IMG/VR virus record: IMGVR_UViG_3300028284_000001
DNA: 64,000 bases
Source: a virus
Strand: one strand, 5' to 3'
Below are positions 2,626 to 53,842 of the stretch, one piece after another. The translations under genes and the position numbers were made by a program. The stretch's first letter is position 1, and every line of letters begins with the position of its first letter. Under the pieces are notes generated by a model. That model saw only the letters and a program-made list of their open reading frames with translations. It did no database searches and had not been told where the DNA came from.

Positions 2626-2657
2626 TTAACTTAAAGACTATTCTAGTCTATTTTTTA

Positions 2658-3308: not shown

Positions 3309-3720
3309 CTATTTGCTTTTCAATTTTTTTAAGGTCTGCATATAATTGATCTTTCGCAAATAATTTTAATTCACTCATTTCGCGCTGGCCTATTTCATTT
3401 TTATTCATGTAAAGCTCTACAGCTCTATCACTTGGGATATATTTATCCACTTCATTTTTCTTAGCCTTTTTAGTTTTAGTATAAAACCATCGTGGCACTG
3501 ATTTAAACCTGGAAGCTACCATTGACCAACTATCAACAACGCTTGCACCGTTGATACCATTGATATTAAACATCTGTGCATTTGCAGGATATTTAATAGA
3601 CATAAATCTATTAATCATGAAATGATGTCTCTTCTTATTATGTTGTTTTATTTTATTATATGTTGCTGGCTTTGTAAACATAATTTTCACAAAGTCAAAC
3701 AACTTAGTTTCGTCTAGCAT
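3292..3720 (-). CDS. clamp loader small subunit (gp62-like)
   Basis: FMINRFMS and RWFY segments, 142 aa, near the gp44-like gene, middle-type promoter. Confidence 0.55.
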   Translation of the reverse strand: MLDETKLFDFVKIMFTKPATYNKIKQHNKKRHHFMINRFMSIKYPANAQMFNINGINGASVVDSWSMVASRFKSVPRWFYTKTKKAKKNEVDKYIPSDRAVELYMNKNEIGQREMSELKLFAKDQLYADLKKIEKQIDVYND

Positions 3721-3749
3721 ATTAATTATATGTTAATAAGTTGGAAAGT

Positions 3750-3911
3750 TTACCCAATAAGGGTATTAAATGCATGTTGATAAGAATCTACTTTTGATAG
3801 ATTATGAAGCATTTCTATTTTAGTAGCAAGTTCTATAATTTCTGGTTTTAAATTATATGCATTTGCTTCTGCTAAGATTTCTTCTATATGAATATAGTCG
3901 TTTAAAGTCAT
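3750..3911 (-). CDS. small hypothetical protein (53 aa)
   Basis: MTLNDYIHIEEILAEANAYNLK..., TAATG-coupled to the RNase H stop; fills the gap; not in ORF track. Confidence 0.6.
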   Translation of the reverse strand: MTLNDYIHIEEILAEANAYNLKPEIIELATKIEMLHNLSKVDSYQHAFNTLIG

Positions 3912-5179
3912 TAGAATAAATTTTTAGTAGAATCCTTTTTAGTAGATTTTGCAATAGTCTTTTTACCAACTAACTTCATAGGAGTTTGCTTCTCTTCTGG
4001 AATATCCATGCCTGCAAAAGGATCTGGTGCAAAATTGTTTTTCTTAGCACCTTCTAACCAATCAGTATCTTTTAAGATTTTGTCCATTTCTAACAAAGCA
4101 TCTTTATTATCAATTGCACCTTCCCAATCTTTTTCAATTGCATCGTAAATTGCTTTTTGAATTGGATCTGGAATAGTTTCATTATGCAATAGCATTAAGC
4201 CGATATTTTGTGTAAGAGTAGTTTTAATTAATGTTAATGAACTGTGTCCGACAACTCTGTAGATAATATCTGATAATGTATCTTTAGCTTCTGATGAAAA
4301 TAAGTAATCTATTTTAAAGTCATTGAATTCTTTAACGAATTGACTGAAAATCATATCTGCTGTTTTATCAGTAATAGAATAGTTTCTAAGTTTACCGTTC
4401 TTCATTTCTTTTTGCCAAGTAACTACTGACGAAATGTTATCTGATTTATCTCCTGTAAGTATTTTCTTAAATATAAATTCATCACAGTTGATTTCTGTAG
4501 TAGTAATTTTATTAGCAGTTACCCATGACATGATGTCATATTGATAATTATCACGCAACATATTCTTACCGCCCATGTTGAATAACATATCATCGCCAGT
4601 CATGTCTTTTGAGGATGATTTAGCCATGTCAGCTTCAAAGCCTTGATAACCATAGAGAGATTTTTTAGTATTGTAATACCATATAGTATGCGCGTCGTTG
4701 GTAGTGGAATAGTTAACTAATTGAATAAGATCTCTATCACCAGTCCATACGATACAAGATTTACCTCTGGCATTCAACATTGTTGACCAACCGAAGATAA
4801 CATCATCTGCTTCTGCACCTTGTATTTGATGTACAGTAACACCTTTCTTAGCAAGAATTTCTTGAAATGCTTCATATACTTCATATACTGCAGTCCAATC
4901 TACTGTTTTGTTTTGCTTTCTAGTTCCTTTATATTGTGCTTCTGGATATAGATCCTTTCTCCATGATTTAGAATCTACAGTCAAAACAACATCATCAACA
5001 AACATCTTAAGCTTACGCATTTCAGATGCAAAGTCAATTGCTAGTTTTCTCATAAACTGTGATTTTTGCTTATCATCACCCAGAAGAAGCGCGCCGCCCT
5101 TTGGCTTTGGCATAACGAATAATCTACTAAAAACAAAGTAGTTACCGTCGATTAATAATGTATGTTTTCCCACTTTCAT
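3911..5179 (-). CDS. rnh: T4 RNase H / 5'-3' flap exonuclease
   Basis: LLIDGN, SWRK..YP..YKGTR, EADD, GDRDLIQL, LTGDKSDNI motifs. Confidence 0.9.
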   Translation of the reverse strand: MKVGKHTLLIDGNYFVFSRLFVMPKPKGGALLLGDDKQKSQFMRKLAIDFASEMRKLKMFVDDVVLTVDSKSWRKDLYPEAQYKGTRKQNKTVDWTAVYEVYEAFQEILAKKGVTVHQIQGAEADDVIFGWSTMLNARGKSCIVWTGDRDLIQLVNYSTTNDAHTIWYYNTKKSLYGYQGFEADMAKSSSKDMTGDDMLFNMGGKNMLRDNYQYDIMSWVTANKITTTEINCDEFIFKKILTGDKSDNISSVVTWQKEMKNGKLRNYSITDKTADMIFSQFVKEFNDFKIDYLFSSEAKDTLSDIIYRVVGHSSLTLIKTTLTQNIGLMLLHNETIPDPIQKAIYDAIEKDWEGAIDNKDALLEMDKILKDTDWLEGAKKNNFAPDPFAGMDIPEEKQTPMKLVGKKTIAKSTKKDSTKNLF

Positions 5180-8903: not shown

Positions 8904-10286
8904 TTATAGTGCAAAGTTAGTAACAGTGAATTTCTCATACTGAGTACCAGCATGGAATCCAGCTTCTACTAATGCGTATCTAGATTTTACAGCTACTTTC
9001 GGAGCCATAGTACCTTCAACGATTGCTTGAACTGATTCAGCCATTAAGTAAGGCATGAATACTAATCCAGGACCATTACCATCACCTTTTCTACCAACTA
9101 ATACTTCATTTGACATGAAATCAATAGATGGGTCAGTGTAAACATTAATACCAGCTACAGAACCTAAAGGATAGATTGAACCTGCAACTTGATTAAATGT
9201 GTTAGCCATTGGATAAGCTACGAAACCTGCAACAGATTGTAAAGCAGATGCGATAGCACCACCAACAACTGCGAAGTTACCAGCACCTCTTCTACCTCTT
9301 TGAGCGATTAAGTTAGCCGCTGCTAAGATGTTAGTTAAGATTTTTCTTTGCTTATCAGCTTCAGTCTCACCACCTTGTAGACCACCAGCTGGAGCATAAT
9401 CAAATCCAGCGATACCAGAACCAGCCATATCTCTCATCTTTAATAAGATGTGATTGTTGATAGACTGAGTTAATTCGTTAGTTAAAACTGCTTCTACTTG
9501 AGCAACAGCATCAACACCGAATTGTTTAAGATCTTGTACTTGTTCTCTTGTTACGGCAGCAGCAACTTGGAAAGTTTGAGCTGAAACGCTTTTTGAGAAT
9601 AAAGATAGACCCATTACTTTGTCCATAGTTTGTTCACCAACTTCTCTGTTCATTGGTACACCTAAATTAGCATCAGATGCAGCACCTGAAAATTCAGGAA
9701 TGTGATCTTCTAAAGCTTTTACTAATCTTACATTAGAATTAGCTTCAAAGTATTCTGACATGTTTAAAGTATGTCCATCAGCACCATCAACAGTTGCATC
9801 AATTGCAATTGAATAGATAGTATCTCCTGAAATTCTTGAAGTACCAGCATCAACAACACCAGTAGCAGCACCTAAAGGAGCAGTTTCTGAGATTACATAA
9901 GTTGGAGAAGTAGTTCCTTTGATTTTACCACCTTCGTAAACGAAATCTAGGTAAGATAAAAGACCCATTGGTCCAGCCATTGGTACAACAGGTACTAAAT
10001 CAAGACCGATTGTTTGTGCAGCAACTTGCATTGCTAAAGGTAAAAGAGTTGGGGCTTTATCGCCTGATCCATCTGCATTACCTGCAGTAGGGAAGTTTGT
10101 TCCTCCCATACCAAAGATGTTACCTGCAGTCCCTAAAGACATGAAGTTTGCATCTTCATAAAGCTTGTGATTGTGACAGTATTCTGACATCCAAGCTAGT
10201 TTTGCGCTTTCGTTAATTCCAGTTGCTTCCGAGATAATCGGAGACCAAGTGTTTCTAACTTCAGCTTCATTAATTAAATTTGCCAT
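8904..10286 (-). CDS. major capsid protein (T4 gp23-like)
   Basis: DLVPVVPMAGPMG, EQVQDLK, RRGAGNF, PYLM, KSRYAL motifs; follows portal and protease. Confidence 0.93.
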   Translation of the reverse strand: MANLINEAEVRNTWSPIISEATGINESAKLAWMSEYCHNHKLYEDANFMSLGTAGNIFGMGGTNFPTAGNADGSGDKAPTLLPLAMQVAAQTIGLDLVPVVPMAGPMGLLSYLDFVYEGGKIKGTTSPTYVISETAPLGAATGVVDAGTSRISGDTIYSIAIDATVDGADGHTLNMSEYFEANSNVRLVKALEDHIPEFSGAASDANLGVPMNREVGEQTMDKVMGLSLFSKSVSAQTFQVAAAVTREQVQDLKQFGVDAVAQVEAVLTNELTQSINNHILLKMRDMAGSGIAGFDYAPAGGLQGGETEADKQRKILTNILAAANLIAQRGRRGAGNFAVVGGAIASALQSVAGFVAYPMANTFNQVAGSIYPLGSVAGINVYTDPSIDFMSNEVLVGRKGDGNGPGLVFMPYLMAESVQAIVEGTMAPKVAVKSRYALVEAGFHAGTQYEKFTVTNFAL

Positions 10287-10401: not shown

Positions 10402-12582
10402 TTACTTTTTAAATCTTTTCTTTAAGCTTTCAGCGTAGTCAGAAACATCGTATAGTGGCTTGTTTTCTTCCTCAACAACTGTTGATTCATTAACTGCCGC
10501 TAACTTTTCTAAGTCAACTTTAACCTCTCTTAGATCTCTAGTTTCCCAGAAGTTTCTAACTTGATACTCAGTTTTTAGAGTATGATAGTTTGCTTGTGCT
10601 TTAATTTGTGTTTGTTTTGCTTCAGTTAAAGATTCAAACTTCTCTTTATATTCTGCAGGCATTGCAGTCATAAATAATGGTTCGTTATTTTTAGATTCAA
10701 CAACTAGTGTTGCACCTTCAATAATTGAGTTAATTTGAGATTCATTCATGAATGCTCTTTTTGCAACTCTATTTCTAACTTCAGTTTTAGCATCTTCGTT
10801 TAGTGCATTGTAAGCTTCTTGTATAGAACCTGAAACTACATTTAAGAATGCAGGATTTTCATTTTCTTTTACTTGAGCAGCTTCTACTAATGCATCTAAC
10901 TTAGATGAAATTTCGTTTTTGTAAGCTTCTAGTGGATCGTGTGCTCCATCTTCGCCTTCAGTTTCTTCATCACCTTCACCAGCTTCAGCTTCTTCAGTTT
11001 CACCTTCTGGCTCAACTTCAGATACGTCTTCAGTTTCATCTTCTAATTCTTCAGCAGGTTGACCAGCTCCATCTTCAGCAGCAGGATCTACATCACCTTC
11101 TTTTGAATTATCACCAACTTCTTCTCCGCCTTCAGCTTCTTCTTTTTCAGCACCAGGTGCGTCAACTTCATCTTCTTCTTCAGTTACTTCTTCAGTCTCT
11201 TCAACTTCTTCAGTTTCAGCTACTTCTTCAGCACCTTCACCAGCTTCATCTTCTTCAGCTACTTCTTCAGCACCTTCACCAGCTTCATCTTCTTCAGTTA
11301 CTTCTTCAGTTTCAGCTACTTCTTTAGCTCCATCTTCACCTTCATCTTCAGCAGGTAATTCACCAAGTTCAGCTTCTTCAGTTTCATCTTTAACTTCAGC
11401 GTCAGATTTTACTGTTTCATCTTCTAAATCTTCAGCAGGAACTCCAGCTTCATCTTCTTCAGTAACTTCTTCAGTTTCTTCAACTAAATTTTCGTTAATT
11501 TGAACTGCGATATATTCAGCATACTCAGATACTGATTGTAAGTTTTCTTTTAAATACTCAACGTAAGATAATAGAGCCTTTGCAGAGTCTGTACTTTCGT
11601 TCATACTTTCAGCTAAATAATCAGAAAAGTCTTTAACTTTACTAATACCTTCAGCTAAATGCTCAGAATATTGAATGCCTTGATCTAATTTTTCAGCAAC
11701 AGCCTCAGTATAAGATATACCTTGATCTGCTTTTTCAGCAACGTGTTCTGAATACTGGATTGATTCGTCTAATTTGCCAGCTAAATACTCAACATATTCT
11801 GAGAGAGTATTAACGCTTTCGACGATGTGGTCGTTATGAGATTTTACATCTTCTAACGTGTTGTCTTCGTTTTTTGCACCGATAGACTCTTTAATGCTTT
11901 TCATTTCATTAGCTAAGTACTCAGAATACTTATTGAAATCTTCAGCTTTTACAAATTCTGCCATGTTTTTTTCTTTTATTTCTGTATTTGTGTTTGTTAT
12001 TGTAATTTCTTTTTCTGCAACTCCAGTTTCTTCGTTCATTTCATAGATCCAAAGACCTGAGTCGTTATCAAAACCATACGATTCATTTACTCTTTTTAAT
12101 TCAGCGTTAGCAAATCCAGGATCTGCAACTAAATCATAAGTAAATAATTGTTTGATTTTAACCTTTCCATTTGATTCTACAGCACCAGCAGCTCTTGAAG
12201 AGATTTGTAAAGGTACACCAGCATCAACTAGTGCTTTAGCTTGACGTCCAGCGTCAGTATCTAATAGTCTAATTTTACCTTTTACATGCTTTGATTCTTT
12301 ATCGTAGAAAAGCTCCTCAATAATGTGTGAAACATTTTTTAGAGAAACATCAAATTGCTGAGGATGATCTAACTCGCCCAATAGCTTAGAAGATTTAATC
12401 TTCTCTTGTAACTGTTGGATTTGAGGAACATACTCAGATTCAGTATAAATTCTGTTGTTTTTGTTTTTAGTGTCAATTTCACCAAAAATACCTTCGAGGA
12501 TGTACTCTTTATTGTCAGATTCCGCTACGCGTAATTGACTAGAGGACATTTCGACGATTAGTAAATCGTTAACTTTTGCCAT
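10402..12582 (-). CDS. prohead protease (gp21-like) fused to an acidic scaffold/core domain
   Basis: NKNNRIY, GELDHP, ISSRAAG, TYDLVADPG in the first ~165 aa, then YxExxAE helical repeats and a Glu-rich tract. Confidence 0.88.
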   Translation of the reverse strand: MAKVNDLLIVEMSSSQLRVAESDNKEYILEGIFGEIDTKNKNNRIYTESEYVPQIQQLQEKIKSSKLLGELDHPQQFDVSLKNVSHIIEELFYDKESKHVKGKIRLLDTDAGRQAKALVDAGVPLQISSRAAGAVESNGKVKIKQLFTYDLVADPGFANAELKRVNESYGFDNDSGLWIYEMNEETGVAEKEITITNTNTEIKEKNMAEFVKAEDFNKYSEYLANEMKSIKESIGAKNEDNTLEDVKSHNDHIVESVNTLSEYVEYLAGKLDESIQYSEHVAEKADQGISYTEAVAEKLDQGIQYSEHLAEGISKVKDFSDYLAESMNESTDSAKALLSYVEYLKENLQSVSEYAEYIAVQINENLVEETEEVTEEDEAGVPAEDLEDETVKSDAEVKDETEEAELGELPAEDEGEDGAKEVAETEEVTEEDEAGEGAEEVAEEDEAGEGAEEVAETEEVEETEEVTEEEDEVDAPGAEKEEAEGGEEVGDNSKEGDVDPAAEDGAGQPAEELEDETEDVSEVEPEGETEEAEAGEGDEETEGEDGAHDPLEAYKNEISSKLDALVEAAQVKENENPAFLNVVSGSIQEAYNALNEDAKTEVRNRVAKRAFMNESQINSIIEGATLVVESKNNEPLFMTAMPAEYKEKFESLTEAKQTQIKAQANYHTLKTEYQVRNFWETRDLREVKVDLEKLAAVNESTVVEEENKPLYDVSDYAESLKKRFKK
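11214..11297. repeat. 39-bp in-frame tandem repeat (EEDEAGEGAEEVA x2) in the acidic scaffold region
   Basis: cagctacttcttcagcaccttcaccagcttcatcttctt occurs twice in tandem. Confidence 0.85.
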
Positions 12583-12643: not shown

Positions 12644-12985
12644 TTAAATGTCAAGGTCTAGATCATCATCTCCGCCCTCTTCTTCCTTGCCAGCATCCTT
12701 CTCTTCTTCCTTCTCTCCTTCAGCATCTTCAGTCTCTTTATCTAGATAATATTTAACTAGAACATCCATTTCACCTTCAGCAAAAGCATCTTGTCCATAT
12801 TCACTATAGAAATAATCTTTAAATTCTTTTTCAGTTTTAGATGCTGTAATAGCTCCTAGAATTTCAGCTGATTTTATTTCAGATCCTGAATCTAAGGTTA
12901 CTGGTTCCACATATATGCTTGATTCTTCACCGGCCTTTAAGGCGTCTTCGGTGATAAATTCTTCAAATGTTTTGTAAATCTTCAT
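12644..12985 (-). CDS. prohead core/internal protein with capsid-targeting-like N-terminus
   Basis: MKIYKTFEEFITE resembles the T4 CTS MKTYQEFIAE; acidic; lies between portal and protease, the position of T4 gp67/68. Confidence 0.6.
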   Translation of the reverse strand: MKIYKTFEEFITEDALKAGEESSIYVEPVTLDSGSEIKSAEILGAITASKTEKEFKDYFYSEYGQDAFAEGEMDVLVKYYLDKETEDAEGEKEEEKDAGKEEEGGDDDLDLDI

Positions 12986-13027: not shown

Positions 13028-14626
13028 TTAAAAGCCCATCCCGTCATCTTCAGGTTCTGGTTCATCAGCAGCAGCCTTTGCAGCTTTTGCTTTAAATGAT
13101 TTATTAGCATTGATTTCATCATCGGTCAATTTTAAGTATTTTGTTACTAAATATTCTTGATCGAAGTAGTATTCTTCTTCCATAGTCTCTTGATTAGTTG
13201 TCATTAAACTATCTCTCATACTTGAGATAAAGTCTAATCTTAACTGCATGATTTCTTGATTTTTTAATTCAGCAAATACATTCTCTTCATTAAATCTTAA
13301 AGATACTTGTGTTTTGAATTGTGGATCATCAGTAAATTCTGGATATTTAAGACACATTTGAATATACAATGGCTTAACTAATATCTCTTGGAATACTGAT
13401 CTTAGTCTATTAATAAACTTAGCAAACTTAATTTCATCTCTTACCATACCGTCACCAGCTAATGCATAGTCACCACCATCATCTTCATATAAGAATCTGT
13501 TGTAAGGTATTTTAGAAACTTGTTTTAGTTTATCTTGGAAATATTTAAGAGCTTCTGTATCATTTAATTCTGGTCCTTCACCACCAAGAGTTTCAATTTC
13601 TGGAGTTTCACCATCTTTAGAAGGTAACCAATACTCTTTACTAAATTGTAACATTGGTTTACCATCTGTTGTTAATGATCCTGATTCAAAATCAAAATCA
13701 ACAACTTCTTTATAGTTATTCATTAACTGAGCTAACGATTGTTTTGCTCTAGTTTTAGATTTACCACCTACAGGTATAATAAACTTCATTCTAAATGAAG
13801 CGTTAGTTACAGCCCAGATTACTCTGGTATGTTCCATAATCCTAAGTAGGTTAAATGATCTAGTTAATCTTTCAACATAAGATACTCTTGATGCTGTTGA
13901 TAAAGAAGAATATGAAAGATAAATGATTTGAGAATCATATAACACTCTTTCTTTTACTGGATCATCTTTATATTGGATCCATACTTTCTTACCGTCGTCT
14001 TTATTAAAACCAGGCATTAGTGTTACTGGATCAATCTCTTTAAAACCTATAATCTCTTTTTGGTCTGGGGAATAAATTATCTCAAATGATAAGTAACCAT
14101 CTACTAAGAACTTTCTAAAGAAGTACCAAGCTGATTGTTCACCATTAAATCCAAAGTAGTGATAGATTTGTCTAAAGTATTTGTTAAGGTCTTTGTTAAC
14201 TTCTTCAGAAACATCAAGACCTAGAATAGAAGGTTGAGCAAAGAAATTCTTTTCATCATATACAACTGCTTCATCACAAAGTATATCTAGAATATCTTCA
14301 ACCTCATCGTTCATTGAGAATCTTCTTAATTCATCTCTTTTACCAGGATAATCAATATCAAAGAACGGTACGTTCTTCTTCATATTAATATCTGCCATGG
14401 ATAGAGCAGCAAATGCTCCGTAAATATCATCGTTGTCTAATCCGAACGGGTTCATCTCTCTATAGCCAAATTGGTCCTCCATAGGGCCAATCGCTTGAGA
14501 TTGTCTAAGTACCAGGTCATCATATCGCATACCAAAAGAACTCAGCGTCTTCAAAGCACTTGAGAGGCTAAATGGTTTTGAGTTTGAACTAAATGGTCCG
14601 TTTCGTTTGTCAGTAAATCCTGCCAT
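13028..14626 (-). CDS. portal protein (gp20-like)
   Basis: FLVDG, EYWLP..DG..PEIETLGG, RDEIKFAKFINRLR. Confidence 0.93.
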   Translation of the reverse strand: MAGFTDKRNGPFSSNSKPFSLSSALKTLSSFGMRYDDLVLRQSQAIGPMEDQFGYREMNPFGLDNDDIYGAFAALSMADINMKKNVPFFDIDYPGKRDELRRFSMNDEVEDILDILCDEAVVYDEKNFFAQPSILGLDVSEEVNKDLNKYFRQIYHYFGFNGEQSAWYFFRKFLVDGYLSFEIIYSPDQKEIIGFKEIDPVTLMPGFNKDDGKKVWIQYKDDPVKERVLYDSQIIYLSYSSLSTASRVSYVERLTRSFNLLRIMEHTRVIWAVTNASFRMKFIIPVGGKSKTRAKQSLAQLMNNYKEVVDFDFESGSLTTDGKPMLQFSKEYWLPSKDGETPEIETLGGEGPELNDTEALKYFQDKLKQVSKIPYNRFLYEDDGGDYALAGDGMVRDEIKFAKFINRLRSVFQEILVKPLYIQMCLKYPEFTDDPQFKTQVSLRFNEENVFAELKNQEIMQLRLDFISSMRDSLMTTNQETMEEEYYFDQEYLVTKYLKLTDDEINANKSFKAKAAKAAADEPEPEDDGMGF

Positions 14627-39944: not shown

Positions 39945-40514
39945 TTATTTTGCGTCTATTTGAATGTATTCAGCGTCTCTAAGTTCAAGATTGTTATTAC
40001 CAACCTGTCTATCGTATTCACCATAGATAACATCTTTTTTACTTGCTACTGGAGAGTTCATCATTCCAGTCTTATCTATTTTTCTACCTAATTTATTACC
40101 GTTAGCATCATCCATAAAACCAACATTAATTACCATTTCATTCCATGTTGCGTATGATATGTATAAATCCCCAGAACCGTCTGATGAGTTTAAGCCATTA
40201 ACTTCGTCAGCTTTCCATTCTTCACTTAAATTAGCAGTTACAAATAATACCGTCTCCATATCTTTTGTTCCTTTTTCAACTTGATCCAAGATGATTTTTT
40301 CAGCATCTTTCTTAAAACTCTTCCATTCTTTATTAACTTCTTTTAGAGTTCCATCTACATCACCTTCATATTGAATCTTTTCGATTTCTTTTTTAAAGGC
40401 TTGCATTACTTTTCCTATTAACCCCTTAGAAGTATAAAGTCCAGTCATTCTATATGCTTTTTCGTTTAATTTTTGTGAAGCTACAAATGCTTCAAATAAT
40501 TTTACGTGTTTCAT
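39945..40514 (-). CDS. putative internal head protein
   Basis: N-terminus MKHVKLFEAFV...KLNE. Confidence 0.6.
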   Translation of the reverse strand: MKHVKLFEAFVASQKLNEKAYRMTGLYTSKGLIGKVMQAFKKEIEKIQYEGDVDGTLKEVNKEWKSFKKDAEKIILDQVEKGTKDMETVLFVTANLSEEWKADEVNGLNSSDGSGDLYISYATWNEMVINVGFMDDANGNKLGRKIDKTGMMNSPVASKKDVIYGEYDRQVGNNNLELRDAEYIQIDAK

Positions 40515-40535
40515 AGTTGTTTTTATTTAATTGTA

Positions 40536-42692
40536 TTACCAAGCGTAATCGAATCCTTCGATTTTAGCTATTTTTTCTTTAAGTGATAAAGCGTAATTCT
40601 TAATCTCTTTTTTATACCAAGATTCAGATGAACCAAATCTTTTTTCAGATTCTTCTTCTTGTCTAACATAATCACAATATCTAGAATAATCATCTAATAT
40701 ATTTGACATGTGATTAGAAGCATCTCTTAATTTAACCTCTTTTCCTTTTGCACTTTGACCAATTTTGATTTCTTCATATCTAGTCTTTTCACCACTAGCT
40801 AAACCTGCTTTAATTTGATCGGTTAACATATCGATTGCATCTGCTACCATTTTATCTAATGGCATTGTTGCAGCCTTAGTAGCTAAAATTTGGTGGTATC
40901 TGTCGTTGTTAGCTTTCTTAAAATCTTTATCATTAGTAAATGCAATTGCACCTGATTTAGCTTCAGCTCTAGCTGCTCTTAATTGGTCAGTAGAATACTT
41001 TTGTCTAATTAGGTCTAGGTTAATAACAAGAACTCTATCAGAAACTTCTGCGATTCTTTTACCATTATTAAGTCCAGTTCCTGACCAGCCTCTGTATTTA
41101 TGTGATACACCAACTTGGTCATCAGAACCTTTTTTACCGTCTTTTTTAAATGATTTAGTTCTTGAATATCTAGACCAGTCATTAGTATAGAATTCTCTAT
41201 CACCAGACATTGCTGCTATTAGAAGACCTCCACCTGGTACAGTTTTTAAAGAACCATAACCAGCGTCATAAGGACAGTATGGGTTATCTTTTTCGTTATC
41301 AGATATAAAGAATAATATATGCTTTGATCCACCATGTTCTTTAAACACCTTAGTTGGATCATTACTTATTACCATATCCTCATCACCTACTTTATCTAAT
41401 GCAACTTTAGCTAATCCGTAAAAACCACCAGCTAGTGACTTTAAATTTTCTTTACCGTATTTACCTTCTTTGTTACTCATCAAAATGCTAGCTAGCAATT
41501 GGCTACCTATTTTTTCATTTAAGAATCCAGATGCTCCAACAAAGTCAGAGAATGATTCATGTAAAAATATATTTTCCATATTTGTTGTTTGTGTTTTAAT
41601 ATTTTCTAGAAGACCTATTGCAATATCATTGACTTCTCTATCTCCTTTGTCAACATATCTTTTATTAACAATCATAAAAGTAAATCCATCTGCTGTTACT
41701 TGGTAATGTGGCATCATGCCTGTACCAAAGTCGTATTTATATTTAGCTGCTTTTAATTCTTTACCAACGTCCATAAATGATTTAGCTTTACCTACTAATT
41801 CAGCAAGCTTATCTAAGTGTGTTCCAGCGTCATCCTTTTCGTTAACTGCTGATTCGGCTAATCCTTGCTTTTTCATTAGAGCTAGTTCATCTTTACATGC
41901 CTTGTTAAATTTCTTAAAGTGCGGTATTGCAGATTTAGAATATCCATCTTGAAATAATTCAATTGCCATATTCAGATGGCTTGCTATTTCGTCAGCTTGT
42001 TCATCACCTATTTCTTCAAAATCATCAGAAAGTCTTAGTAACTTTTTCTCACCCGTTCCCTTTGAAGCGAATAAACCAAGTTTTAGTAATGCAACAATTG
42101 GCTCTTCTTTAGCTTCAGTAACTGATTCGTCCACTCTTGTTAAAGTATCGTAATAAATATCATCTATATTACCTGAGTTATCAAAGTTATATCCTACTGA
42201 TGCGTCGATAGTCCATTCTTTTCCATCTTGGTCTGTACCCATAAAGTATACATCCTTTCCTTCGTTTCCGTGGTCATCGATAACATCATAATCATCAAAT
42301 TCTACTTCATACTTTTTACTACCGTCTTTAAATTTAATAATAGGCCAATCATCTTTAGTGATTTTAATAGCTTCAGATATAGGGAATGCTTTTAATGTAG
42401 GCGTGTCTAATTCGCTTAAAATTCTAAGACCCCATTTTGAAAGCTTAACACCATCCTCAGAAACAAAGAAATATTTTGAATTTGAAGATCTCCACCTGTT
42501 AGGACTTTTAGATACCTTTGAAAGTATTTTAGTAAATTCCTCTTCTGTTAATATTCCGTCTTTTACTGCTTTTAAAATTTCGTTTCTAACATTAGCTGTT
42601 TTGCCAACAGTAGATGCAGGGTGGTTTTCAGTATACTTTCTTTTAATCTGTATCTTTTTACCTTCTTCTAAAAAATCTTTGAATTTATTCAT
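40536..42692 (-). CDS. putative multi-module internal head protein
   Basis: N-terminus MNKFKDFLEE; modules separated by ISE, VTE, VNE, LLE, LNE. Confidence 0.6.
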   Translation of the reverse strand: MNKFKDFLEEGKKIQIKRKYTENHPASTVGKTANVRNEILKAVKDGILTEEEFTKILSKVSKSPNRWRSSNSKYFFVSEDGVKLSKWGLRILSELDTPTLKAFPISEAIKITKDDWPIIKFKDGSKKYEVEFDDYDVIDDHGNEGKDVYFMGTDQDGKEWTIDASVGYNFDNSGNIDDIYYDTLTRVDESVTEAKEEPIVALLKLGLFASKGTGEKKLLRLSDDFEEIGDEQADEIASHLNMAIELFQDGYSKSAIPHFKKFNKACKDELALMKKQGLAESAVNEKDDAGTHLDKLAELVGKAKSFMDVGKELKAAKYKYDFGTGMMPHYQVTADGFTFMIVNKRYVDKGDREVNDIAIGLLENIKTQTTNMENIFLHESFSDFVGASGFLNEKIGSQLLASILMSNKEGKYGKENLKSLAGGFYGLAKVALDKVGDEDMVISNDPTKVFKEHGGSKHILFFISDNEKDNPYCPYDAGYGSLKTVPGGGLLIAAMSGDREFYTNDWSRYSRTKSFKKDGKKGSDDQVGVSHKYRGWSGTGLNNGKRIAEVSDRVLVINLDLIRQKYSTDQLRAARAEAKSGAIAFTNDKDFKKANNDRYHQILATKAATMPLDKMVADAIDMLTDQIKAGLASGEKTRYEEIKIGQSAKGKEVKLRDASNHMSNILDDYSRYCDYVRQEEESEKRFGSSESWYKKEIKNYALSLKEKIAKIEGFDYAW

Positions 42693-42694
42693 AG

Positions 42695-43090
42695 TTATTT
42701 AAGCTTTTTTGTTATACCATCAATTTCTGTATAGGCACAGTTTTGTCCCTTAACAATAAATGATCCATAAGAGATTGAAAGGTTTGCACCTTCACCTCCT
42801 GTTTTAACATGGGTTTTATATGCTTCTTCTATAGAGGCCTGATCTGCAGCAACAGCTACAACTTTAGGTCTAAAGCCGGCACCGACATTATGATCATTTT
42901 TAGATCTCAGATACATTGATTCTCCATTTATTTCTACTGTATTATGTAGTACTAAAGCGAAACTAGTTTCTCCTTTAGCTGGTAAATCAAAACCATCAAA
43001 TGAATATTTACTAAAGTAGTAAGATCCAAGCGCTATTTTCTCATTAACTACGTTATGAGTAAATGCTTCAAATGTGTTTATTGATTTCAT
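42695..43090 (-). CDS. putative internal head protein
   Basis: N-terminus MKSINTFEAF...VVNE; late motif variant at 43112-43119. Confidence 0.6.
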   Translation of the reverse strand: MKSINTFEAFTHNVVNEKIALGSYYFSKYSFDGFDLPAKGETSFALVLHNTVEINGESMYLRSKNDHNVGAGFRPKVVAVAADQASIEEAYKTHVKTGGEGANLSISYGSFIVKGQNCAYTEIDGITKKLK

Positions 43091-43110
43091 GTTTTAGTTA
43101 GTTTATTTGT

Positions 43111-44970
43111 TTATATATTCTTTAGAAAAGTATTAAAGGTTTGAAAATCTACTTCTGTAGATTCAGCTACTACTCCAACAGAGTTCTCTAATTTAGTTTT
43201 TAATTCTGCATACATACTATGTAATGCTTTAGGAGTTAGCTTCTTAAATAACTTCTCATCGCCGTCTAGCATTGCATTTCTTACTTGTGTTGCTGAAATA
43301 TTCTTACCTGTTCTAGGAATTTCAAATAATCCGAAATCATCTCTAACACCTAAGTCATCTCTATATTCTTGTTTATCTACTTGATATCCATAAGTCTTCA
43401 TTCTATCACTTCCTGTTCCCCATAATACTGGTTCGTATCTAGGTCTCATTGCATTAAACATGGTGTCAATACCTCCTGTTGGAATTACAAAAACTTGTTC
43501 GATTGGATATTTAGATTTTAAAGAGTTAATCATTGCCACTTGAGTGTCCTCATCATAAGGTCTTTTAAATGCATCTTCCTTTTTCTTATTCTTAGCCTTA
43601 ACTAATAATATTACTACTGGATATCCATTTTGTTTATGAATAGTTTCAACTACTTTAGCATGGCCTAGTGTGAATGGTTGGAATCTACCAACAAACATAT
43701 TAACTAGTTTTTTACCTTGTCCTGGATAATCTACCTTTAACGCTTCGGTAATTGGACTTATTTGAGTACTAATTTTCTTATTTGATAAATATTGGTTAAA
43801 GTTCATAACATCACCTTCGTTAGCTTTTGCCATTATTTTATCATCAATTTTTTCAACAATGCCATTTAACGCATCTAGCATATCACCTTGTAGAAGATCT
43901 GTACCCTTGCTTCTTTTCTTTCTAAAACTACCTAATGTAATTTTAAATAATTCTGCTAGAGTTTTATCTTGTATTAATGTTAGAGTTTTTTCATTAGTTA
44001 TGAACTTATGATTTAATTCAAACATTGGAGACTCTGCAAAATCAGCAGAATCAAATTTAGCACCAATATATTTAGTAGCATTCTTTTCAACATATTTGTT
44101 AAATACACTTGACATTAATTCTAAATATCTATAATCAGCAGATTCAGATGTTAATTCTACTAAACTAATATCCTCTTGTATAAAAAATTCTACAATATCT
44201 AAAATAGAAATCTGATACATGTCAGAAGGTTTTCTATTCTCTTTAGTTTCTTTATTAAATCTTTCTAATACAAATGTTTGTAATGTTTTTCCATCATGTA
44301 TATTAATAATAAATCCTGCAACTTCTTTAGAAAGATCGTTCATTAAAGTAGATTGCTTTAAGTTCTCATTAAAGATTCCATAAACACTTCTTGTAAAATT
44401 AGGTCTATCTTTATTTTCATACTTATCCGTATATTCATTAATACTAGTAGATAACATTTCTTTAAGACCGTCCTTTTGACCTGAATGTAAAAAGCCTTCA
44501 AAAATAACTGGAGGTCTTTGTACTTCTAAAAGATCTGCCCATTTATTTAATATTTTAGTATCTCTAATTACTTTTCTAACTTTATTAGGATTAGATGGTT
44601 GTAATACTTGGATATGTGTTAACACTAAATTAGATTTAGGTAGTACATCATATTCAATATCAATAGTTTTGTTATCTCCTAAATATTCAAAACCAAACTT
44701 CCAATCAAATGGCATTTCTTCTACAGAATCAGAAGCAACTGTTTTAAAGTGTCTAATTGCATTTTCGTAGTATCTTACAATAGTACGATCTACTACATTC
44801 ATCTTATCTTTAGAACCTGATTTATAGAATGCAAATTCAGAACCTTCTCTTTTAGCGTGAAAAGATGAACCATCAATTTTTTCTGTTACAACACATTTGT
44901 TTGATAACAGTTTATCAATGTCATTAATATTAGATCCTTCAAAATATGTTTTTAAATTCTGTAGTGCCAT
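43111..44970 (-). CDS. ligase-fold domain fused to a HIGH-superfamily (cytidylyltransferase/NMNAT-like) nucleotidyltransferase
   Basis: N-terminal VTEKIDG and FGFEY; C-terminal GRFQPFTLGH, GSDR, ISATQVR. Confidence 0.75.
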   Translation of the reverse strand: MALQNLKTYFEGSNINDIDKLLSNKCVVTEKIDGSSFHAKREGSEFAFYKSGSKDKMNVVDRTIVRYYENAIRHFKTVASDSVEEMPFDWKFGFEYLGDNKTIDIEYDVLPKSNLVLTHIQVLQPSNPNKVRKVIRDTKILNKWADLLEVQRPPVIFEGFLHSGQKDGLKEMLSTSINEYTDKYENKDRPNFTRSVYGIFNENLKQSTLMNDLSKEVAGFIINIHDGKTLQTFVLERFNKETKENRKPSDMYQISILDIVEFFIQEDISLVELTSESADYRYLELMSSVFNKYVEKNATKYIGAKFDSADFAESPMFELNHKFITNEKTLTLIQDKTLAELFKITLGSFRKKRSKGTDLLQGDMLDALNGIVEKIDDKIMAKANEGDVMNFNQYLSNKKISTQISPITEALKVDYPGQGKKLVNMFVGRFQPFTLGHAKVVETIHKQNGYPVVILLVKAKNKKKEDAFKRPYDEDTQVAMINSLKSKYPIEQVFVIPTGGIDTMFNAMRPRYEPVLWGTGSDRMKTYGYQVDKQEYRDDLGVRDDFGLFEIPRTGKNISATQVRNAMLDGDEKLFKKLTPKALHSMYAELKTKLENSVGVVAESTEVDFQTFNTFLKNI

Positions 44971-46241
44971 TATCTTCCGTATTTTATGATACCCATTAGC
45001 TGGTTAATCGCAGCAAAAGTACCGGTTAGTTTAAAGGTTTTTCCTTTAAATTTAAAGACCACTCCTTCTGTTGGGATGATCGACTCAATACCACCAATTC
45101 CCTCTAGTCTTTTTAGTTCTTTTTCAACCTTTGCAATTTGAGTAAGGTCGCCATTCTTTTTAATCTTGCCAGCTTCAGTTCTAATCTGATTATGTAATCT
45201 TGCTTTTTCAGCATCTGGATTAGCAGCTACAAAATTAGAAGCGTTCTTTAAAACATCTGCACCTAACTCTAAAAATAGATTCTCAAAAGGTAAAATGTTT
45301 TCTTTATACTTCTTATTTCTTTGACCATCAAAATCTTTAACAGCCTTATTTTGTTCCGGTGTTAATTCCTTCTTTAATGCAGTTAACTTAAGCGTCTGCT
45401 TATCTAAGTAAGCCCATCTTAAAAGTAAACCCTCTTTGTGTGCAGGTTCTAAGTCTGCAAAGTTCTCTTCGATTTGGCCTCTCCACCACATCTCGTGATA
45501 CATTTTAACCTCATCAGTATCTGATAGACTATAAGTATCTCTTAGTTTATTTATCGCCTTTTCGTAATAGCCTACTCTATCATCAAAGTTAATGTCTTTT
45601 CCTAACTTTAAAATTTGAGGGGGAATTATTGTAAACGTCTTTTGAACATCTGACTTTAATTCTTTAAGAGCTTTAACTAGTTCTGTAGCAATATTTTGTT
45701 TTCCAGTTTGATTACCTTCACCATCAGTCTCTACAATACCATGAAATTGTATAACATCTCTGTCATAATAGATAACATTAGGGTTTTTAGAGTAAATTAG
45801 TTCCATGTTAACGAAATTTAATCCGTTCGCGAACATTGATTGGTCCTTAAGCGCTGGGAGCGCCGCTGCTAGATCTTTAGCAGCAAAGATATATGTTTCT
45901 TCAACCAGCTGTGAGGCATGACCAGTGAACATCGTAATGATGCCTGCTAGATCAAGTGGGTTTATCATTTGCCCCTTATTTCTGGCAAACATTGCTTGAC
46001 CATCTTTTACAGTTGCAAATAGGTTTTGACCATCAGTCTTTTCAGTTGCAGCCTCTTCGAAATCTAGTCCACCCTGTAATGAAGATTTAACAATAGTCTT
46101 GAAATCTGCAAAAGTTAATGAGTGGTCATCGAAGGGGTGCATCATGTGTCCTGCTGCTCCACCTTCAAATACGAAAGAGTCCAAGTTGTTCACTTGGATT
46201 TTCTCGTTTAAAAATTCTGTAAAATTAGTGTATATCTTCAT
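44970..46241 (-). CDS. ATP-dependent ligase/capping-superfamily nucleotidyltransferase (DUF6267-like)
   Basis: GHMMHPFD, TEKTDG (motif I), NMELI (III), EGVVF (IV), FKLTG (V). Confidence 0.7.
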   Translation of the reverse strand: MKIYTNFTEFLNEKIQVNNLDSFVFEGGAAGHMMHPFDDHSLTFADFKTIVKSSLQGGLDFEEAATEKTDGQNLFATVKDGQAMFARNKGQMINPLDLAGIITMFTGHASQLVEETYIFAAKDLAAALPALKDQSMFANGLNFVNMELIYSKNPNVIYYDRDVIQFHGIVETDGEGNQTGKQNIATELVKALKELKSDVQKTFTIIPPQILKLGKDINFDDRVGYYEKAINKLRDTYSLSDTDEVKMYHEMWWRGQIEENFADLEPAHKEGLLLRWAYLDKQTLKLTALKKELTPEQNKAVKDFDGQRNKKYKENILPFENLFLELGADVLKNASNFVAANPDAEKARLHNQIRTEAGKIKKNGDLTQIAKVEKELKRLEGIGGIESIIPTEGVVFKFKGKTFKLTGTFAAINQLMGIIKYGR

Positions 46242-46261: not shown

Positions 46262-47695
46262 TTATCCTAATGATGCTGTTAATGCACCGACAGCAGCTCC
46301 GTAATCGTCACCGTGCTTAGACAATAATCCGTCTACAACTTCTTGTGCTTTTTCTTCGTCAAATTTATCACCGAAAGCTTTTCCTAAAACTGAGAAGGCA
46401 TACTCTTTAAAATCTTCATCAGACTTTACTTCTGCTTCGTTAGTAGCTTCAGTTTCAGTTTCTTCAGTTGTAGCTTCAGTTTCAGTTTCTTCAGTTGTAG
46501 CTTCAGTTTCAGTTTCTTCAGCACCTTCTTCTACAACTTCTTCTTCTTTAATAACTGGAAAGTTCTTACCATTAAATTCAAATTCTGCAGCATCTTCTTC
46601 AATTGCTTTAGCTCTTGCTGCTAAAAATGCATTGCCTTCGTTCATTACTGACTCGTTAGCCCATATTAATTCAAATGCATCTACTATTTTTTGTGCTTGT
46701 TGAGAATAACCAAATCCATCTAAGAATAAAGCCATACCTTCAACAATACCGATACCAGACCATCCTGCAGCGTTAGCTAATCCAGAATAATGATTATCTA
46801 ATAAACTCATGATTGATTTTTTACCAACTGGAACTTCTAAACCACCTAGGTTATCGATCTTTACTGAAACAGTAGTAATCTTACCACCAAGTGCTTTACT
46901 TACTGGATCTTTATATGAATGGAAGTTAGCGTCTGTTAAAGATTCTGATAATAAATATCTACAAACTCCTAATAAGAGCTGACCGTCCATTAATGCAGTG
47001 TGATTCGTAAAGAATGATTCTAACCATTTAGATACTTTCTTAGCATCTCTTAAATTACCCTTAGAAGGTTTAAATGATTCATTGATTATCATAGATTCAA
47101 ATGCTGGGACTAAATCGTAACTATCATAAACATCAACCATATACCATTTCTTATCTGTTTCAGAATATAGGTAGATAAATTCAGCTCCACCGTTATTAGC
47201 GGCATCTTTTACGAACTTCTCAGTATCTTTCATATCTCCGTCAGTAGTGGTCTTGTCGCCGTAGAATTTAATATCGTCTACATTTGCTTCTAGACCTGAA
47301 CCACCCCCTTTCTTCAGTAGAGTGTCTACTGCCTTTCCATCTTTGTAACCCTTTTTAATTGTAGGTAACATGTGGTCTGGGTAACCATCATAGTGCATAT
47401 ACACTGTTGAGATTTTTCCGTTCTTTTTGATTTTACCGATTTGTGATCTTGTACCCTCTTCAATGATCGCTATTGATTCTGATATTTCAGAACTACCTAA
47501 CTTTTGATAGAATGTATGTCTGTCTTCTTCTTTAAGTTCTTTAATAGAAGTTACTCCGAACTCTCCAAGTAGATTTTTAAACTGATCTGCAGCTACATTT
47601 CTTGCAGCTGATTGTTCTTCTTCTAATTTAGCGTTAGCTAGCTTTTTAGCACCATGTGCAAAATCTTCAAAAGATTGTAATTTTAATGATCCCAT
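46262..47695 (-). CDS. putative multi-module internal head polyprotein
   Basis: LQSFEDF N-terminus; embedded GTRS...YMHYDGYP domain; late promoter at 47731-47738. Confidence 0.6.
   Translation of the reverse strand: MGSLKLQSFEDFAHGAKKLANAKLEEEQSAARNVAADQFKNLLGEFGVTSIKELKEEDRHTFYQKLGSSEISESIAIIEEGTRSQIGKIKKNGKISTVYMHYDGYPDHMLPTIKKGYKDGKAVDTLLKKGGGSGLEANVDDIKFYGDKTTTDGDMKDTEKFVKDAANNGGAEFIYLYSETDKKWYMVDVYDSYDLVPAFESMIINESFKPSKGNLRDAKKVSKWLESFFTNHTALMDGQLLLGVCRYLLSESLTDANFHSYKDPVSKALGGKITTVSVKIDNLGGLEVPVGKKSIMSLLDNHYSGLANAAGWSGIGIVEGMALFLDGFGYSQQAQKIVDAFELIWANESVMNEGNAFLAARAKAIEEDAAEFEFNGKNFPVIKEEEVVEEGAEETETEATTEETETEATTEETETEATNEAEVKSDEDFKEYAFSVLGKAFGDKFDEEKAQEVVDGLLSKHGDDYGAAVGALTASLG
46443..46520. 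repeat. 27-bp in-frame tandem repeat x3 (EETETEATT)
   Basis: gtagcttcagtttcagtttcttcagtt repeated about three times. Confidence 0.9.
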
Positions 47696-47729: not shown

Positions 47730-49238
47730 TTATATATCCCCTTCAAATGTCACATTTTTTACTTCAAAAGGAAACTTCTGTTCTCTGTAGATCTTCTGCC
47801 TAGCTTTTGAATGTCTAATTAGATAATTATCCCAATCTGGAGATGACAAATCATCGACAAAATCTATAATGTTTACGTCTGTTTTTGATTTATGTTTTCT
47901 TAATCCTCTACCTATAGATTGTCTAATAATCACTTCTGATTTAAACGATTCAGTAAAGAATATGTTATGTATTTTATTAATTGATATACCAGTAGAAAAT
48001 GTACCATAGGATGCTACGATTACAACTTCAGCCCCTGTTTCCATTTTCTTTTTATACTCTTCTCGAATATCTTTATCTGTATTACCATCTACATAGTAAA
48101 CGTTTTTATCAGAATCTTGGCGAAGCTTTTCATATATTCTTTTACCGTGTTCAATACGATGGAATAATACAAGACTATTACCGCGTACTCTGGAAATAAT
48201 GTTTGTAATGAAAGCGAGCCTACCTGTTGACTGTATAACATAATTGCTTTCAAATTTATAGACGTCTTTGCTTTCATACCTGTTTTGTGACATCTCCCTA
48301 AATGCGTTTTTTGTTGAGTCGGGAGCGTAATCCATTTTTATTACTTTTACTTTACAGCCGGCAATATGCCCCTCACCCTGTAAAAAGCTTGCACTAACTT
48401 CTGTAATTACAGGACCTGTATATGCCATTAAAGTCAATCTATCTAAAGTACCTTCTTTTGGAATTGTACCTGACATACCGAATCTATAATTAGCAGCTGT
48501 ACATTTTTGTAAAATAGTTTTGATCGATTGTGATTTAGCTTTATGTGTCTCGTCAATAAGTACTGCATCAAATTGATTAAAGTATTCTTTATCTTTTTTA
48601 ACCAGCGATTGGTATGTACCAATTACCACGTTTCTTCCTGGTCTAATTTTTTGACCAGAATAAATTTGCTGTACTTTAATACTAGCTTGGTTTCTCCAGT
48701 TATAGTCTTGGAAATCTTCAGATCCTTGTACGACAAGTGAGACATTAGGTACAATCATTAGAACTCTACCTGCTTTTTGCTTTTCTAGTAGATATGAAAT
48801 TACCATAAACGAAATAAGTGTTTTACCGGCAGAGGTAGCTAACTCACTTAAGCAATTTCTAAATTTAAGTATATTGTAAGCTGCTTCGATTTGATAATCC
48901 CTAGGTTGCATCTCTGATCCATCAAAGAAGTCCATTGCCCATTCCTCAAAGTCTGCTGCTTTTATATTAGTATCAAAAAGTCTTGTGATGCCATTTAGTT
49001 TAAGCTCGTATTTATACTGCTTACACATGTTCATCACCTCTCTCCATAGTCCAGATGGAATCCATTTATCATCTTTGATATATGAAATATAACCATCCCA
49101 TAAACCTTTTTTTACTAAAGGGTGAAATCGCCAAGAATCAATACGCCTGTTTAATGTAATATTGAGTTGTTCAATTTCCATTTCAGTCGCAGAGTCTACT
49201 CGCAGGAACTGCTTATTATCTGTTAACGTTAAGTCCAT
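47730..49238 (-). CDS. uvsW: SF2 helicase UvsW
   Basis: PRDYQ, ATSAGKT, DETH, STGISI, QSIGRGLR. Confidence 0.93.
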   Translation of the reverse strand: MDLTLTDNKQFLRVDSATEMEIEQLNITLNRRIDSWRFHPLVKKGLWDGYISYIKDDKWIPSGLWREVMNMCKQYKYELKLNGITRLFDTNIKAADFEEWAMDFFDGSEMQPRDYQIEAAYNILKFRNCLSELATSAGKTLISFMVISYLLEKQKAGRVLMIVPNVSLVVQGSEDFQDYNWRNQASIKVQQIYSGQKIRPGRNVVIGTYQSLVKKDKEYFNQFDAVLIDETHKAKSQSIKTILQKCTAANYRFGMSGTIPKEGTLDRLTLMAYTGPVITEVSASFLQGEGHIAGCKVKVIKMDYAPDSTKNAFREMSQNRYESKDVYKFESNYVIQSTGRLAFITNIISRVRGNSLVLFHRIEHGKRIYEKLRQDSDKNVYYVDGNTDKDIREEYKKKMETGAEVVIVASYGTFSTGISINKIHNIFFTESFKSEVIIRQSIGRGLRKHKSKTDVNIIDFVDDLSSPDWDNYLIRHSKARQKIYREQKFPFEVKNVTFEGDI

Positions 49239-53464: not shown

Positions 53465-53842
53465 TTAGATTCTTTTACCCATCGCAGCACCTAAAGCAGC
53501 ACCGACTAATCTGGAGGTTAATAAATCGTAAAAGATACCTTTTTGAATACCTAGTACTTTACAAATAACTTTACCAACTGATTTACCTAAAGCAAATCCA
53601 GCTAAACCACCAAAGATAGAACCTAAAAGACCTTCATTCATAAAAGCTTCTTCTAATTTGTCTAATTCAAATGTACCATCTTCTTTTTGGTATTGTTGTA
53701 CAAATTGCTCTAATGCAAAATCTACTTTATCTTCTAAGTCTTGCGACCATTCTTGTTGAAGCCCTTCTTGTAAAAGTTTCATATCAGTGTCAGTTAGCTT
53801 TTGCTCAACTAAGTACTGGTTAAATGTTTTAGTATCTTTCAT
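53465..53842 (-). CDS. putative virion pro-protein with C-terminal glycine-zipper peptide
   Basis: KTFNQYLVE N-terminus, acidic first half, GxxxG-rich cationic second half; late promoter at 53847-53854. Confidence 0.55.
   Translation of the reverse strand: MKDTKTFNQYLVEQKLTDTDMKLLQEGLQQEWSQDLEDKVDFALEQFVQQYQKEDGTFELDKLEEAFMNEGLLGSIFGGLAGFALGKSVGKVICKVLGIQKGIFYDLLTSRLVGAALGAAMGKRI

Follow-up and report, generated by a model that had tools for sequence, protein, structure and literature searches.

A putative cargo polyprotein of an uncultured T4-like jumbo phage, with predicted head-protease sites that would restore the native N-terminus of a phrog_1987 domain

Herein, we examine a viral DNA of 64,000 nucleotides (IMG/VR record IMGVR_UViG_3300028284_000001; this whole stretch is called the window) and, within it, a minus-strand open reading frame (ORF) of 477 amino acids (aa) at 46262..47695 (P0001). 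Our analysis suggests that the product of this ORF, in an uncultured T4-like jumbo phage, is a capsid-targeted cargo polyprotein that an S77-type head protease would cut into four modules and a leader. Weighing sequence comparison and analogy with known phages, we put the probability of this reading at about 65%. The observations that carry it are the homology of an internal domain to small stand-alone phage proteins, the statistics of the junctions in front of that domain, the shuffling of modules among relatives, and the presence of a gp21-type protease gene in the window.

The internal domain belongs to phrog_1987, a family whose members are small, uncharacterized phage proteins that start M-[SAG]-T-R and contain Y-C-H-x-D-G-Y-P. 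Positions 2-121 of the 128-position phrog_1987 profile align with residues 81-193 of the ORF (E 7.2e-16). Since the match begins at position 2, the domain starts one residue past the initiator Met of the profile. The initial annotation of this DNA had pointed to a widespread small phage protein with the patterns M[GSA]TRxxIG and Y[CM]H[WY]DGYP, and the family match (E 7e-16) agrees with this. The sequence elements it had named are all present: IIEE↓GTRSQIG at residues 77-87 (↓ marks a predicted cut), VYMHYDGYP at 98-106, EFIYLY at 172-177 and KWY at 183-185, with G81 starting at 47455. A tblastn search of deposited phages returned 22 genes from Streptococcus prophages, and in every one the alignment begins at query residue 81. 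This residue corresponds, in the two prophage records inspected, to residue 2 of an annotated 114-aa coding sequence, whose neighbors in both cases are a Phd/Doc pair on one side and the portal gene on the other.

A phmmer search with the 120-aa domain against 1.84 billion cluster representatives (50% identity), run without a length filter, gave 810 matches at E≤1e-3. The junction statistics were taken from the best 150 of these 810 matches, parsed with a hidden Markov model of the domain, and two clean classes were found: stand-alone proteins (n=46) and embedded copies (n=98). All 46 stand-alone representatives (105-216 aa) begin M-[S/A/G]-T, with Ser in 25, Ala in 13 and Gly in 8. Their start falls on the same residue as the EE↓G site of the ORF, as an alignment check proposed in the initial annotation was meant to establish. 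Ser, Ala and Gly as second residue permit removal of the initiator Met. The embedded copies start at residues 4 to 636 of proteins up to 1036 aa long. The residue directly before the domain (P1) is Glu in 97 of 98 copies and Met in the remaining one, which is probably a mis-called start. P3 is hydrophobic in every copy (Ile 61, Leu 28, Val 8, Met 1), and P2 is free, being N, T, E, L, K, M, D, S and others. On the other side of the junction, P1' (residue 1 of the domain) is Gly in 82, Ala in 10 and Ser in 6, followed by an invariant Thr (98/98) as residue 2. This pattern is the L/I-x-E rule (97/98 junctions) by which T4 gp21 cleaves (PMC9026906). Processing in T4 is blocked when Asp takes the place of the Glu at the cut (PMC9026906). 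The initial annotation had held that variable N-terminal extensions in the homologues would speak against an exact cut. Such extensions are confined to the T4-like clade and range from 3 to 635 residues, and 97 of the 98 end in hydrophobic-x-Glu immediately before [GAS]-T-R.

The same rule was recovered from the other side. When a profile built from 41 stand-alone members was run against proteins of 269-2000 aa, 12 matches came up, and in 11 of them the domain occupies the extreme N-terminus, with all additions C-terminal. In the twelfth, a Met directly precedes STRS and the sequence ahead of it is a piece of a restriction-enzyme domain, so that the whole looks like a run-on ORF. One of these fusions (P0302) carries a C-terminal dUTPase (PF00692), and others carry DUF7222 or a weak WYL_2-like region; the partners yield no clear functional lead. 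Across about 157 cluster representatives, the domain is thus preceded solely by an initiator Met or by a gp21-type site. Such a pattern is expected of a domain that needs its [GSA]-T-R end free and of a Glu site that is really cut, and it is hard to reconcile with passive linkers. We regard it as strong indirect evidence that the connectors would be cut, exact to one bond, by the head-maturation protease.

The four predicted cuts divide the 477-aa chain into five blocks, all on the minus strand. Statements on residue invariance in this chain refer to an alignment of the best 120 of 821 metagenomic homologues (E≤0.001), which are 59-100% identical to the ORF and 389-751 aa long. Block A (residues 1-80, 47456..47695) is a constant N-terminal leader or propeptide that is always first in the relatives. 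It bears a conserved F9-x-x-F12 (47660-47671) and closes with connector 1, SESIAIIEE (47456-47482); its I-x-E-type sites at residues 71-73 and 78-80 are invariant. Module B, the phrog_1987 domain (residues 81-197, 47105..47455), starts with G81-T82-R83 and contains H101-x-D103-G-Y-P, Y175 and W184. It is followed by connector 2, AFESMIINE (residues 198-206, 47078..47104), with a predicted cut after E206 and possibly another after E200. Residues E200, N205 and E206 are invariant, and the form of this connector, E-S-hydrophobic-hydrophobic-x-E, is that of the connectors between swapped cassettes described below. Module C (residues 207-345, 46661..47077) belongs to no known family, and searches of Pfam, PHROG and the ESM Atlas gave no relative of it. 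Connector 3, ANESVMNE (residues 346-353, 46637..46660), has conserved E348, S349 and E353, the last being the predicted cut site. Module D (residues 354 to about 385, of the GNAF..AARA..AI type, plus an acidic tail; 46436..46636 in all) ends in ATNE with a predicted cut after E420, and N419 and E420 are conserved although the tail itself is variable. Module E (residues 421-477, AEVKSD...ASLG; 46265..46435) is a small helical bundle. An AlphaFold2 model of the whole chain from the single sequence had a mean predicted local distance difference test (pLDDT) score of 44 and was informative for the C-terminal module only: pLDDT rises from 35 to 80 at residue 421, making module E the sole part folded confidently in this way.

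The junctions of the chain are therefore IIEE↓G at 80/81, AFESMIINE↓S at 206/207, ANESVMNE↓G at 353/354 and ATNE↓A at 420/421, of which I-E-E↓G, I-N-E↓S and M-N-E↓G match the L/I-x-E rule. The residues at these junctions vary little or not at all among the orthologues (I/V-I/V-E-E↓G, E200, N205-E206, M/V-N/T-E353↓G and N419-E420↓A), and several connectors hold a second Glu-Ser site 5-7 residues upstream. The module borders proposed in the initial annotation, AFES/IINE, VMNE and ATNE, all exist, with the correction that AFES and IINE form one connector and not two. The 27-bp repeat it had placed in a linker was also recovered, lying in the tail of module D (46435-46521, 3.2 copies, 96% matches). 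Searches of Pfam and NCBIfam found no family that matches any part of the 477-aa protein, and the Pfam search found no peptidase domain in it. PDB sequence searches with the protein or its profile gave no match.

A candidate for the processing enzyme is encoded in the window. The ORF at 10402..12582 (-) matches the gp21-type prohead proteases (Peptidase_S77, PF03420, E 1.6e-12; phrog_207). Its S77 domain (about residues 27-160) is fused to a very acidic, repeat-rich tail of about 560 residues, and the whole looks like a protease-scaffold fusion. The connector motif [ILVMFAT]NE[SAG] occurs 18 times in the 20,053 aa of the minus-strand ORFs of the window. Four of these occurrences are in the 477-aa ORF (Poisson P 7e-5 against background). 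Six more (P 1e-4) are divided between the first 27 residues of the major capsid protein (two) and the protease/scaffold protein (four). The capsid protein (Gp23 family, 8904..10286 (-), PF07068, E 1.9e-44) has its sites LINE↓A and GINE↓S near the N-terminus and serves as an internal reference substrate for the motif, while the tail of the S77 protein carries RVNE↓S, SMNE↓S, FMNE↓S and AVNE↓S. An S77 open frame of 731-747 aa is also present on four of the five long related contigs that bear an embedded domain copy (L049-L052), the fifth contig being 30% complete. Taken with the match to the gp21 cleavage rule, we propose that this S77 protease would process the polyprotein.

The relatives of the ORF exchange modules at these connectors. 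Differences in length among the orthologues come almost wholly from the region between modules D and E, where other phages have one to four extra foreign modules inserted at the module D tail. These include a zinc-ribbon mini-domain, several alpha/beta units and extra copies of module D, each flanked by ES-hydrophobic-hydrophobic-(N/T)-E↓[A/G/S/K]. Insertion, duplication and swapping of modules in the orthologues were found at ES-hydrophobic-hydrophobic-x-E↓ connectors only. Modules D (GNAF.AARA.AI...F.V.G..Y.V) and E are duplicated or triplicated in tandem in P0057, P0075 and P0034, the last having module E three times, twice with an ESVTNE connector directly after it. The resulting variable copy number per chain could tune the dosage of single cargo proteins. 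Distant representatives permute modules B, C and D, giving the orders A-B-C-D-E, A-C-B, A-D-B-E and A-C-D-B-E. Module C stands before or after module B depending on the relative, and P0176 has the order A-B-E with module B directly abutting module E. Short proteins made up of a leader and the domain occur as well (P0128, P0147 and others). Block A is first in every case. A more distant locus at 48% identity (L039) keeps the helicase-ORF-ligase gene order and the cut positions with different connector sequences (TESALLLE↓G, VESVNE↓A, ESTNE↓AKESVNE↓A and ESVEVNE↓T). At this locus, the mechanical ORF call (2656-4341 (+)) adds 40 codons ahead of MERLVTFEQF, the conserved start, and so reaches into the end of the helicase gene; automatic gene prediction may thus mis-start these genes and hide the leader. 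The junction statistics, the S77 protease and the module shuffling together support what the initial annotation had suggested, namely that the free N-terminus of the domain would matter for function and that the gene would encode a true polyprotein.

Module B was modeled with AlphaFold2 from a 61-sequence alignment, and the model of about 120 residues was confident (pLDDT 96.6, predicted template modeling score 0.90). Its five strands and three helices form, in order, a beta hairpin (4-9, 14-20), a pair of helices, one strand, a long third helix and a closing hairpin. The nearly invariant residues, in domain numbering, are T2, Y19, H21, D23, G24, Y25, Y95 and W104, and the 477-aa ORF holds T82, Y99, H101, D103, G104, Y105, P106, Y175 and W184. 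Residues 1-3 lead into strand 4-9, and strand 14-20 ends at the H-x-D-G-Y-P loop. Taking the first two strands as a hairpin, as their spacing suggests, the N-terminus should adjoin this loop. A position beside the most conserved residues would fit a site that includes the free amino end. Our guess is that the amino terminus, T82/R83 and the H101-x-D103-G-Y-P loop would together make up such a site, and that module B might be a small enzyme or ligand binder acting early in infection.

Fold and family searches gave no lead to a function. Foldseek against the PDB with the module B model found nothing convincing (best E 0.11). The VIA all-against-representatives fold search reached a best Z of 4.0, to anticodon-binding domains of aminoacyl-tRNA synthetases and Brix-like domains, which is below the usual noise. 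The four BFVD matches at E≤0.001 were uncharacterized phage proteins only, from Campylobacter phage PC5, Cronobacter phage GAP32 and Yersinia phage fHe-Yen9-04. The ESM Atlas returned unnamed viral clusters only, and no Pfam or NCBIfam model matches any of the 61 aligned domain members. A reading of module B as an N-terminal nucleophile (Ntn) hydrolase, in which a cut between Gly and Thr would expose Thr1, was considered and dropped: the junction reads E↓G, position 1 is taken by Gly, Ala or Ser, and the fold gave no support. Ntn hydrolases have a nucleophilic Thr, Ser or Cys as first residue and a four-layer alpha-beta-beta-alpha fold, and none was among the listed Foldseek or VIA matches of the model.

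From these observations, we tentatively raise a further possibility, which we think less likely than not. The phrog_1987 module may be a zymogen-like latent effector whose active or binding site is completed by its own free alpha-amino end (Gly/Ser/Ala1-Thr2-Arg3, next to the H-x-D-G-Y-P loop). In the producing cell, the chain would then keep this module, and perhaps the other modules, inert, and prohead maturation would arm them to act in the next host.

The leader is reminiscent of the T4 capsid-targeting sequence (CTS), in which residues 4 and 7 are Tyr and Phe. These two positions are the determinants of targeting in T4 (PMC9026906). A pair of aromatics with the spacing [FYW]xx[FYW] occurs within the first 25 residues of 61 of 91 representatives. 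Between the portal and protease genes, at the position of T4 gp67/gp68, an ORF of 113 aa (12644-12985 (-)) begins MKIYKTFEEFITE↓D, closely like the T4 capsid-targeting sequence and followed by an I-x-E site. T4-like leaders also occur on consecutive genes at 39945-46241 (-) and at 53465-53842 (-): MKIYTNFTEFLNE on a 423-aa KxDG ligase-like protein, MKSINTFEAF..VVNE on a 131-aa protein, MNKFKDFLEE on a 718-aa protein, MKHVKLFEAF..KLNE on a 189-aa protein and MKDTKTFNQYLVE on a 125-aa protein. The genes with similar leaders around the cargo gene may form a cluster of capsid-targeted proteins. A second set of domain-bearing proteins, multi-module or short (P0197-P0219), has a leader of the form MIKL(G/T/K)(G/D/E)L... 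with no F-x-x-F. In this set, the domain is often the last module, and I/L-x-E↓G still precedes every copy. The leader may be a different address tag belonging to another phage group.

A candidate late promoter, the motif ATATATAA, lies at 47730..47737 (-), 35 nt upstream of the ATG of the cargo gene. The motif, also as (G)ATATATAA, is found just upstream of the portal, core-protein, 672-aa, 654-aa and tail-fiber-like genes. In the window, it has 15 sites (e.g., 2658, 8822, 12989, 14647, 39122, 43111, 47730, 53846 and 60173), 14 of them on the coding strand, and the sites lie mostly less than 100 nt upstream of start codons, structural genes included. Its sharing with structural genes suggests late expression of the cargo gene. 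The T4 late promoter TATAAATA is under-represented in the window (5 found versus 13.7 expected) and was not found upstream of the cargo gene. ATATATAA may be the late promoter of this clade in place of TATAAATA.

The phage of the window is T4-like. In addition to the capsid protein and protease, the window encodes a Gp20 portal (13028-14626, PF07230) and a gp44-type clamp loader. The closest deposited capsid proteins are those of an uncultured 462-kb phage (49% identity) and of Lak megaphages. Completeness is put at 45-59% for related IMG/VR contigs of 141-176 kb, which implies genomes of roughly 300 kb. The 477-aa ORF sits within a run of genes that all have the same orientation, with a UvsW-type helicase (47730-49238) upstream and two ligase-like genes downstream, one of which is fused to a cytidylyltransferase-like domain.

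We infer the following course of events from the sequences and by analogy with T4. The cargo gene would be transcribed late, and the block A leader, with its CTS-like F-x-x-F, would bring the 477-aa precursor into the prohead core. There, the gp21-type S77 protease would cut after Glu in the (I/L/V)-x-E connectors, at 80/81, 206/207, 353/354 and 420/421, with second cuts a few residues upstream also possible. The four small proteins released, of about 6-16 kDa, would stay with the DNA and be injected with it into the following host, in the manner of T4 IPI-III and Alt. Module B would work only with a free Gly/Ser/Ala-Thr-Arg N-terminus, supplied here by the cut after Glu80 and in the stand-alone forms by removal of Met.

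Other explanations of the same observations were weighed. If the connectors were mere linkers, the ORF would be an uncleaved multidomain protein that acts in the cytoplasm with its helicase and ligase-like neighbors and is never packaged. We consider this unlikely. Acidic low-complexity linkers are frequent in multidomain proteins, the neighbors are replication/repair-type genes, and the case for cleavage rests on sequence comparison. However, plain linkers would vary at the start of the domain, whereas the junctions show Glu at P1 in 97/98, a hydrophobic P3 in 98/98 and no spacer. In all other settings, the domain tolerates nothing added at its N-terminus. The motif of the junctions recurs at the N-terminus of the capsid protein and in the scaffold, and the free permutation of modules speaks against a fixed cooperative architecture.

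The cut itself could be made by a different Glu-specific protease, or only after injection into the host, rather than by S77 in the head. The gp21 family is documented to cut after Glu with Ile or Leu at P3, the S77 gene accompanies the embedded copies on 4/5 long contigs, the S77 substrates in the window (capsid protein N-terminus and scaffold) bear the same motif, and no peptidase domain was found in the 477-aa ORF. With these points, another protease seems quite improbable to us, even though the S77 assignment comes solely from the match to T4 gp21 specificity and embedded metallopeptidases are credited with the release of polyvalent proteins (PMC5512222). It is also conceivable that the connectors are mainly recombination sites, the strict junction being a by-product of moving a connector together with its module and a free N-terminus not being needed. 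Cassettes are clearly exchanged at connectors, and the embedded copies are all of one subfamily. The conservation is, however, at the amino-acid level (Glu at P1, hydrophobic P3, free P2), and L039 keeps the cut positions despite different connector sequences. The stand-alone branch independently obeys the N-terminus rule (46/46 and 11/12), which recombination cannot explain, and we judge this account very unlikely.

Several observations weigh against a capsid-targeted, head-cleaved cargo polyprotein. The leader is unlike the T4 CTS in that F-x-x-F is at residues 9-12 and not 4-7, and no I/L-x-E occurs before residue 26. The fourth junction, T-N-E↓A, has Thr and not a hydrophobic residue at P3. 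The cargo gene lies between the UvsW-type helicase and the ligase-like genes, about 34 kb from the head genes, a point softened by the T4 internal-protein genes, which are likewise outside the head cluster. The embedded copies, all of one subfamily, may all derive from one fusion event, in which case the Glu-Gly junction could be inherited from that fusion and carried with the cassette. The tblastn search of deposited phages found an embedded copy in no cultured relative. The total count of ATATATAA is not above that in shuffled sequence, its bias being in strand and position only. Finally, the placement of the N-terminus next to the conserved loop would follow from the topology of the model and not from coordinates.

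For the annotation of giant phages, chains of this kind, which have no Pfam domains, would otherwise be recorded as one hypothetical protein. The connector motif could be used to split similar "hypothetical" proteins into functional units. The phrog_1987 family is flagged as a handle for biochemistry, being widespread, with a confident but unmatched predicted fold and a free amino end that is probably part of its function. The natural tags and sites also suggest a means of packaging foreign proteins into phage heads. If the latent-effector reading were true, the Glu↓ connectors would represent a general system, readable from sequence, by which exchangeable injected proteins are loaded and activated, and the N-terminus rule would provide, without proteomics, the first natural readout of cutting by a prohead protease.

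The proposed system can be compared with several known ones. The analogy with Ntn hydrolases, proteasome beta subunits and trypsin-type zymogens, whose function needs a newly exposed N-terminus, lies in the removal of a precursor segment at an exact peptide bond. It is no more than an analogy: removal here would be in trans by a head protease and not by autoprocessing, the fold is unmatched, and a residue 1 of Gly, Ala or Ser cannot be an N-terminal nucleophile in most members. Within its own family, the module differs from other phrog_1987 proteins in standing at residue 81 rather than residue 2 and in belonging to a subfamily that reads GTRSQ and M-H-Y-D-G-Y-P. Polyvalent proteins, found in phages and conjugative elements, likewise have many unrelated domains per chain in variable architecture (five blocks here), and their presumed fate is delivery together with the DNA and release by proteolysis (Iyer et al. 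2017, PMC5512222). They usually carry their own zincin-like peptidase and recognizable effector domains, whereas the chain described here has no peptidase or Pfam domain, short uniform connectors and, as we propose, a trans-acting head protease. In phiKZ, 201phi2-1 and SPN3US, ejection or inner-body proteins are cut by gp175/gp245 at S/A-x-E (PMC9026906; PMC10052503). As is proposed here, head proteins of jumbo phages are cut at many post-Glu sites by a gp21 relative, and the redundant neighboring sites of phiKZ propeptides resemble the second Glu-Ser sites of our connectors. Cleavage in those phages serves propeptide removal or trimming, P3 is Ser or Ala instead of the Ile, Leu or Val found here and in T4, and a chain of exchangeable small proteins with uniform connectors was not found described for them. 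Our literature search found no paper on chains of exchangeable small proteins joined by gp21-type sites. What appears new is the N-terminus rule for a widespread family, which would act as an internal natural control for exact cleavage.

The closest parallel is T4 itself, where single cargo proteins are known to carry a capsid-targeting tag and to be processed by gp21. The T4 internal proteins IPI, IPII, IPIII and Alt (PMC9026906; PMC3012670) come from a phage whose gp20, gp21 and gp23 have homologues here. Leader aromatics at i and i+3, predicted cuts after Glu in I/L/V-x-E, and small products expected to travel with the DNA are shared, as is a cargo that is diverse and fast-changing. T4 has one cargo per tag and a 10-residue CTS that is cut off directly, whereas the phage described here, known from sequence alone, has an 80-residue leader and four or more unrelated modules with internal connectors. 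The logic of T4 thus seems to be reused for modular loading, with one leader, many exchangeable proteins and protease sites between them, by uncultured phages of roughly 300 kb that form an abundant clade.

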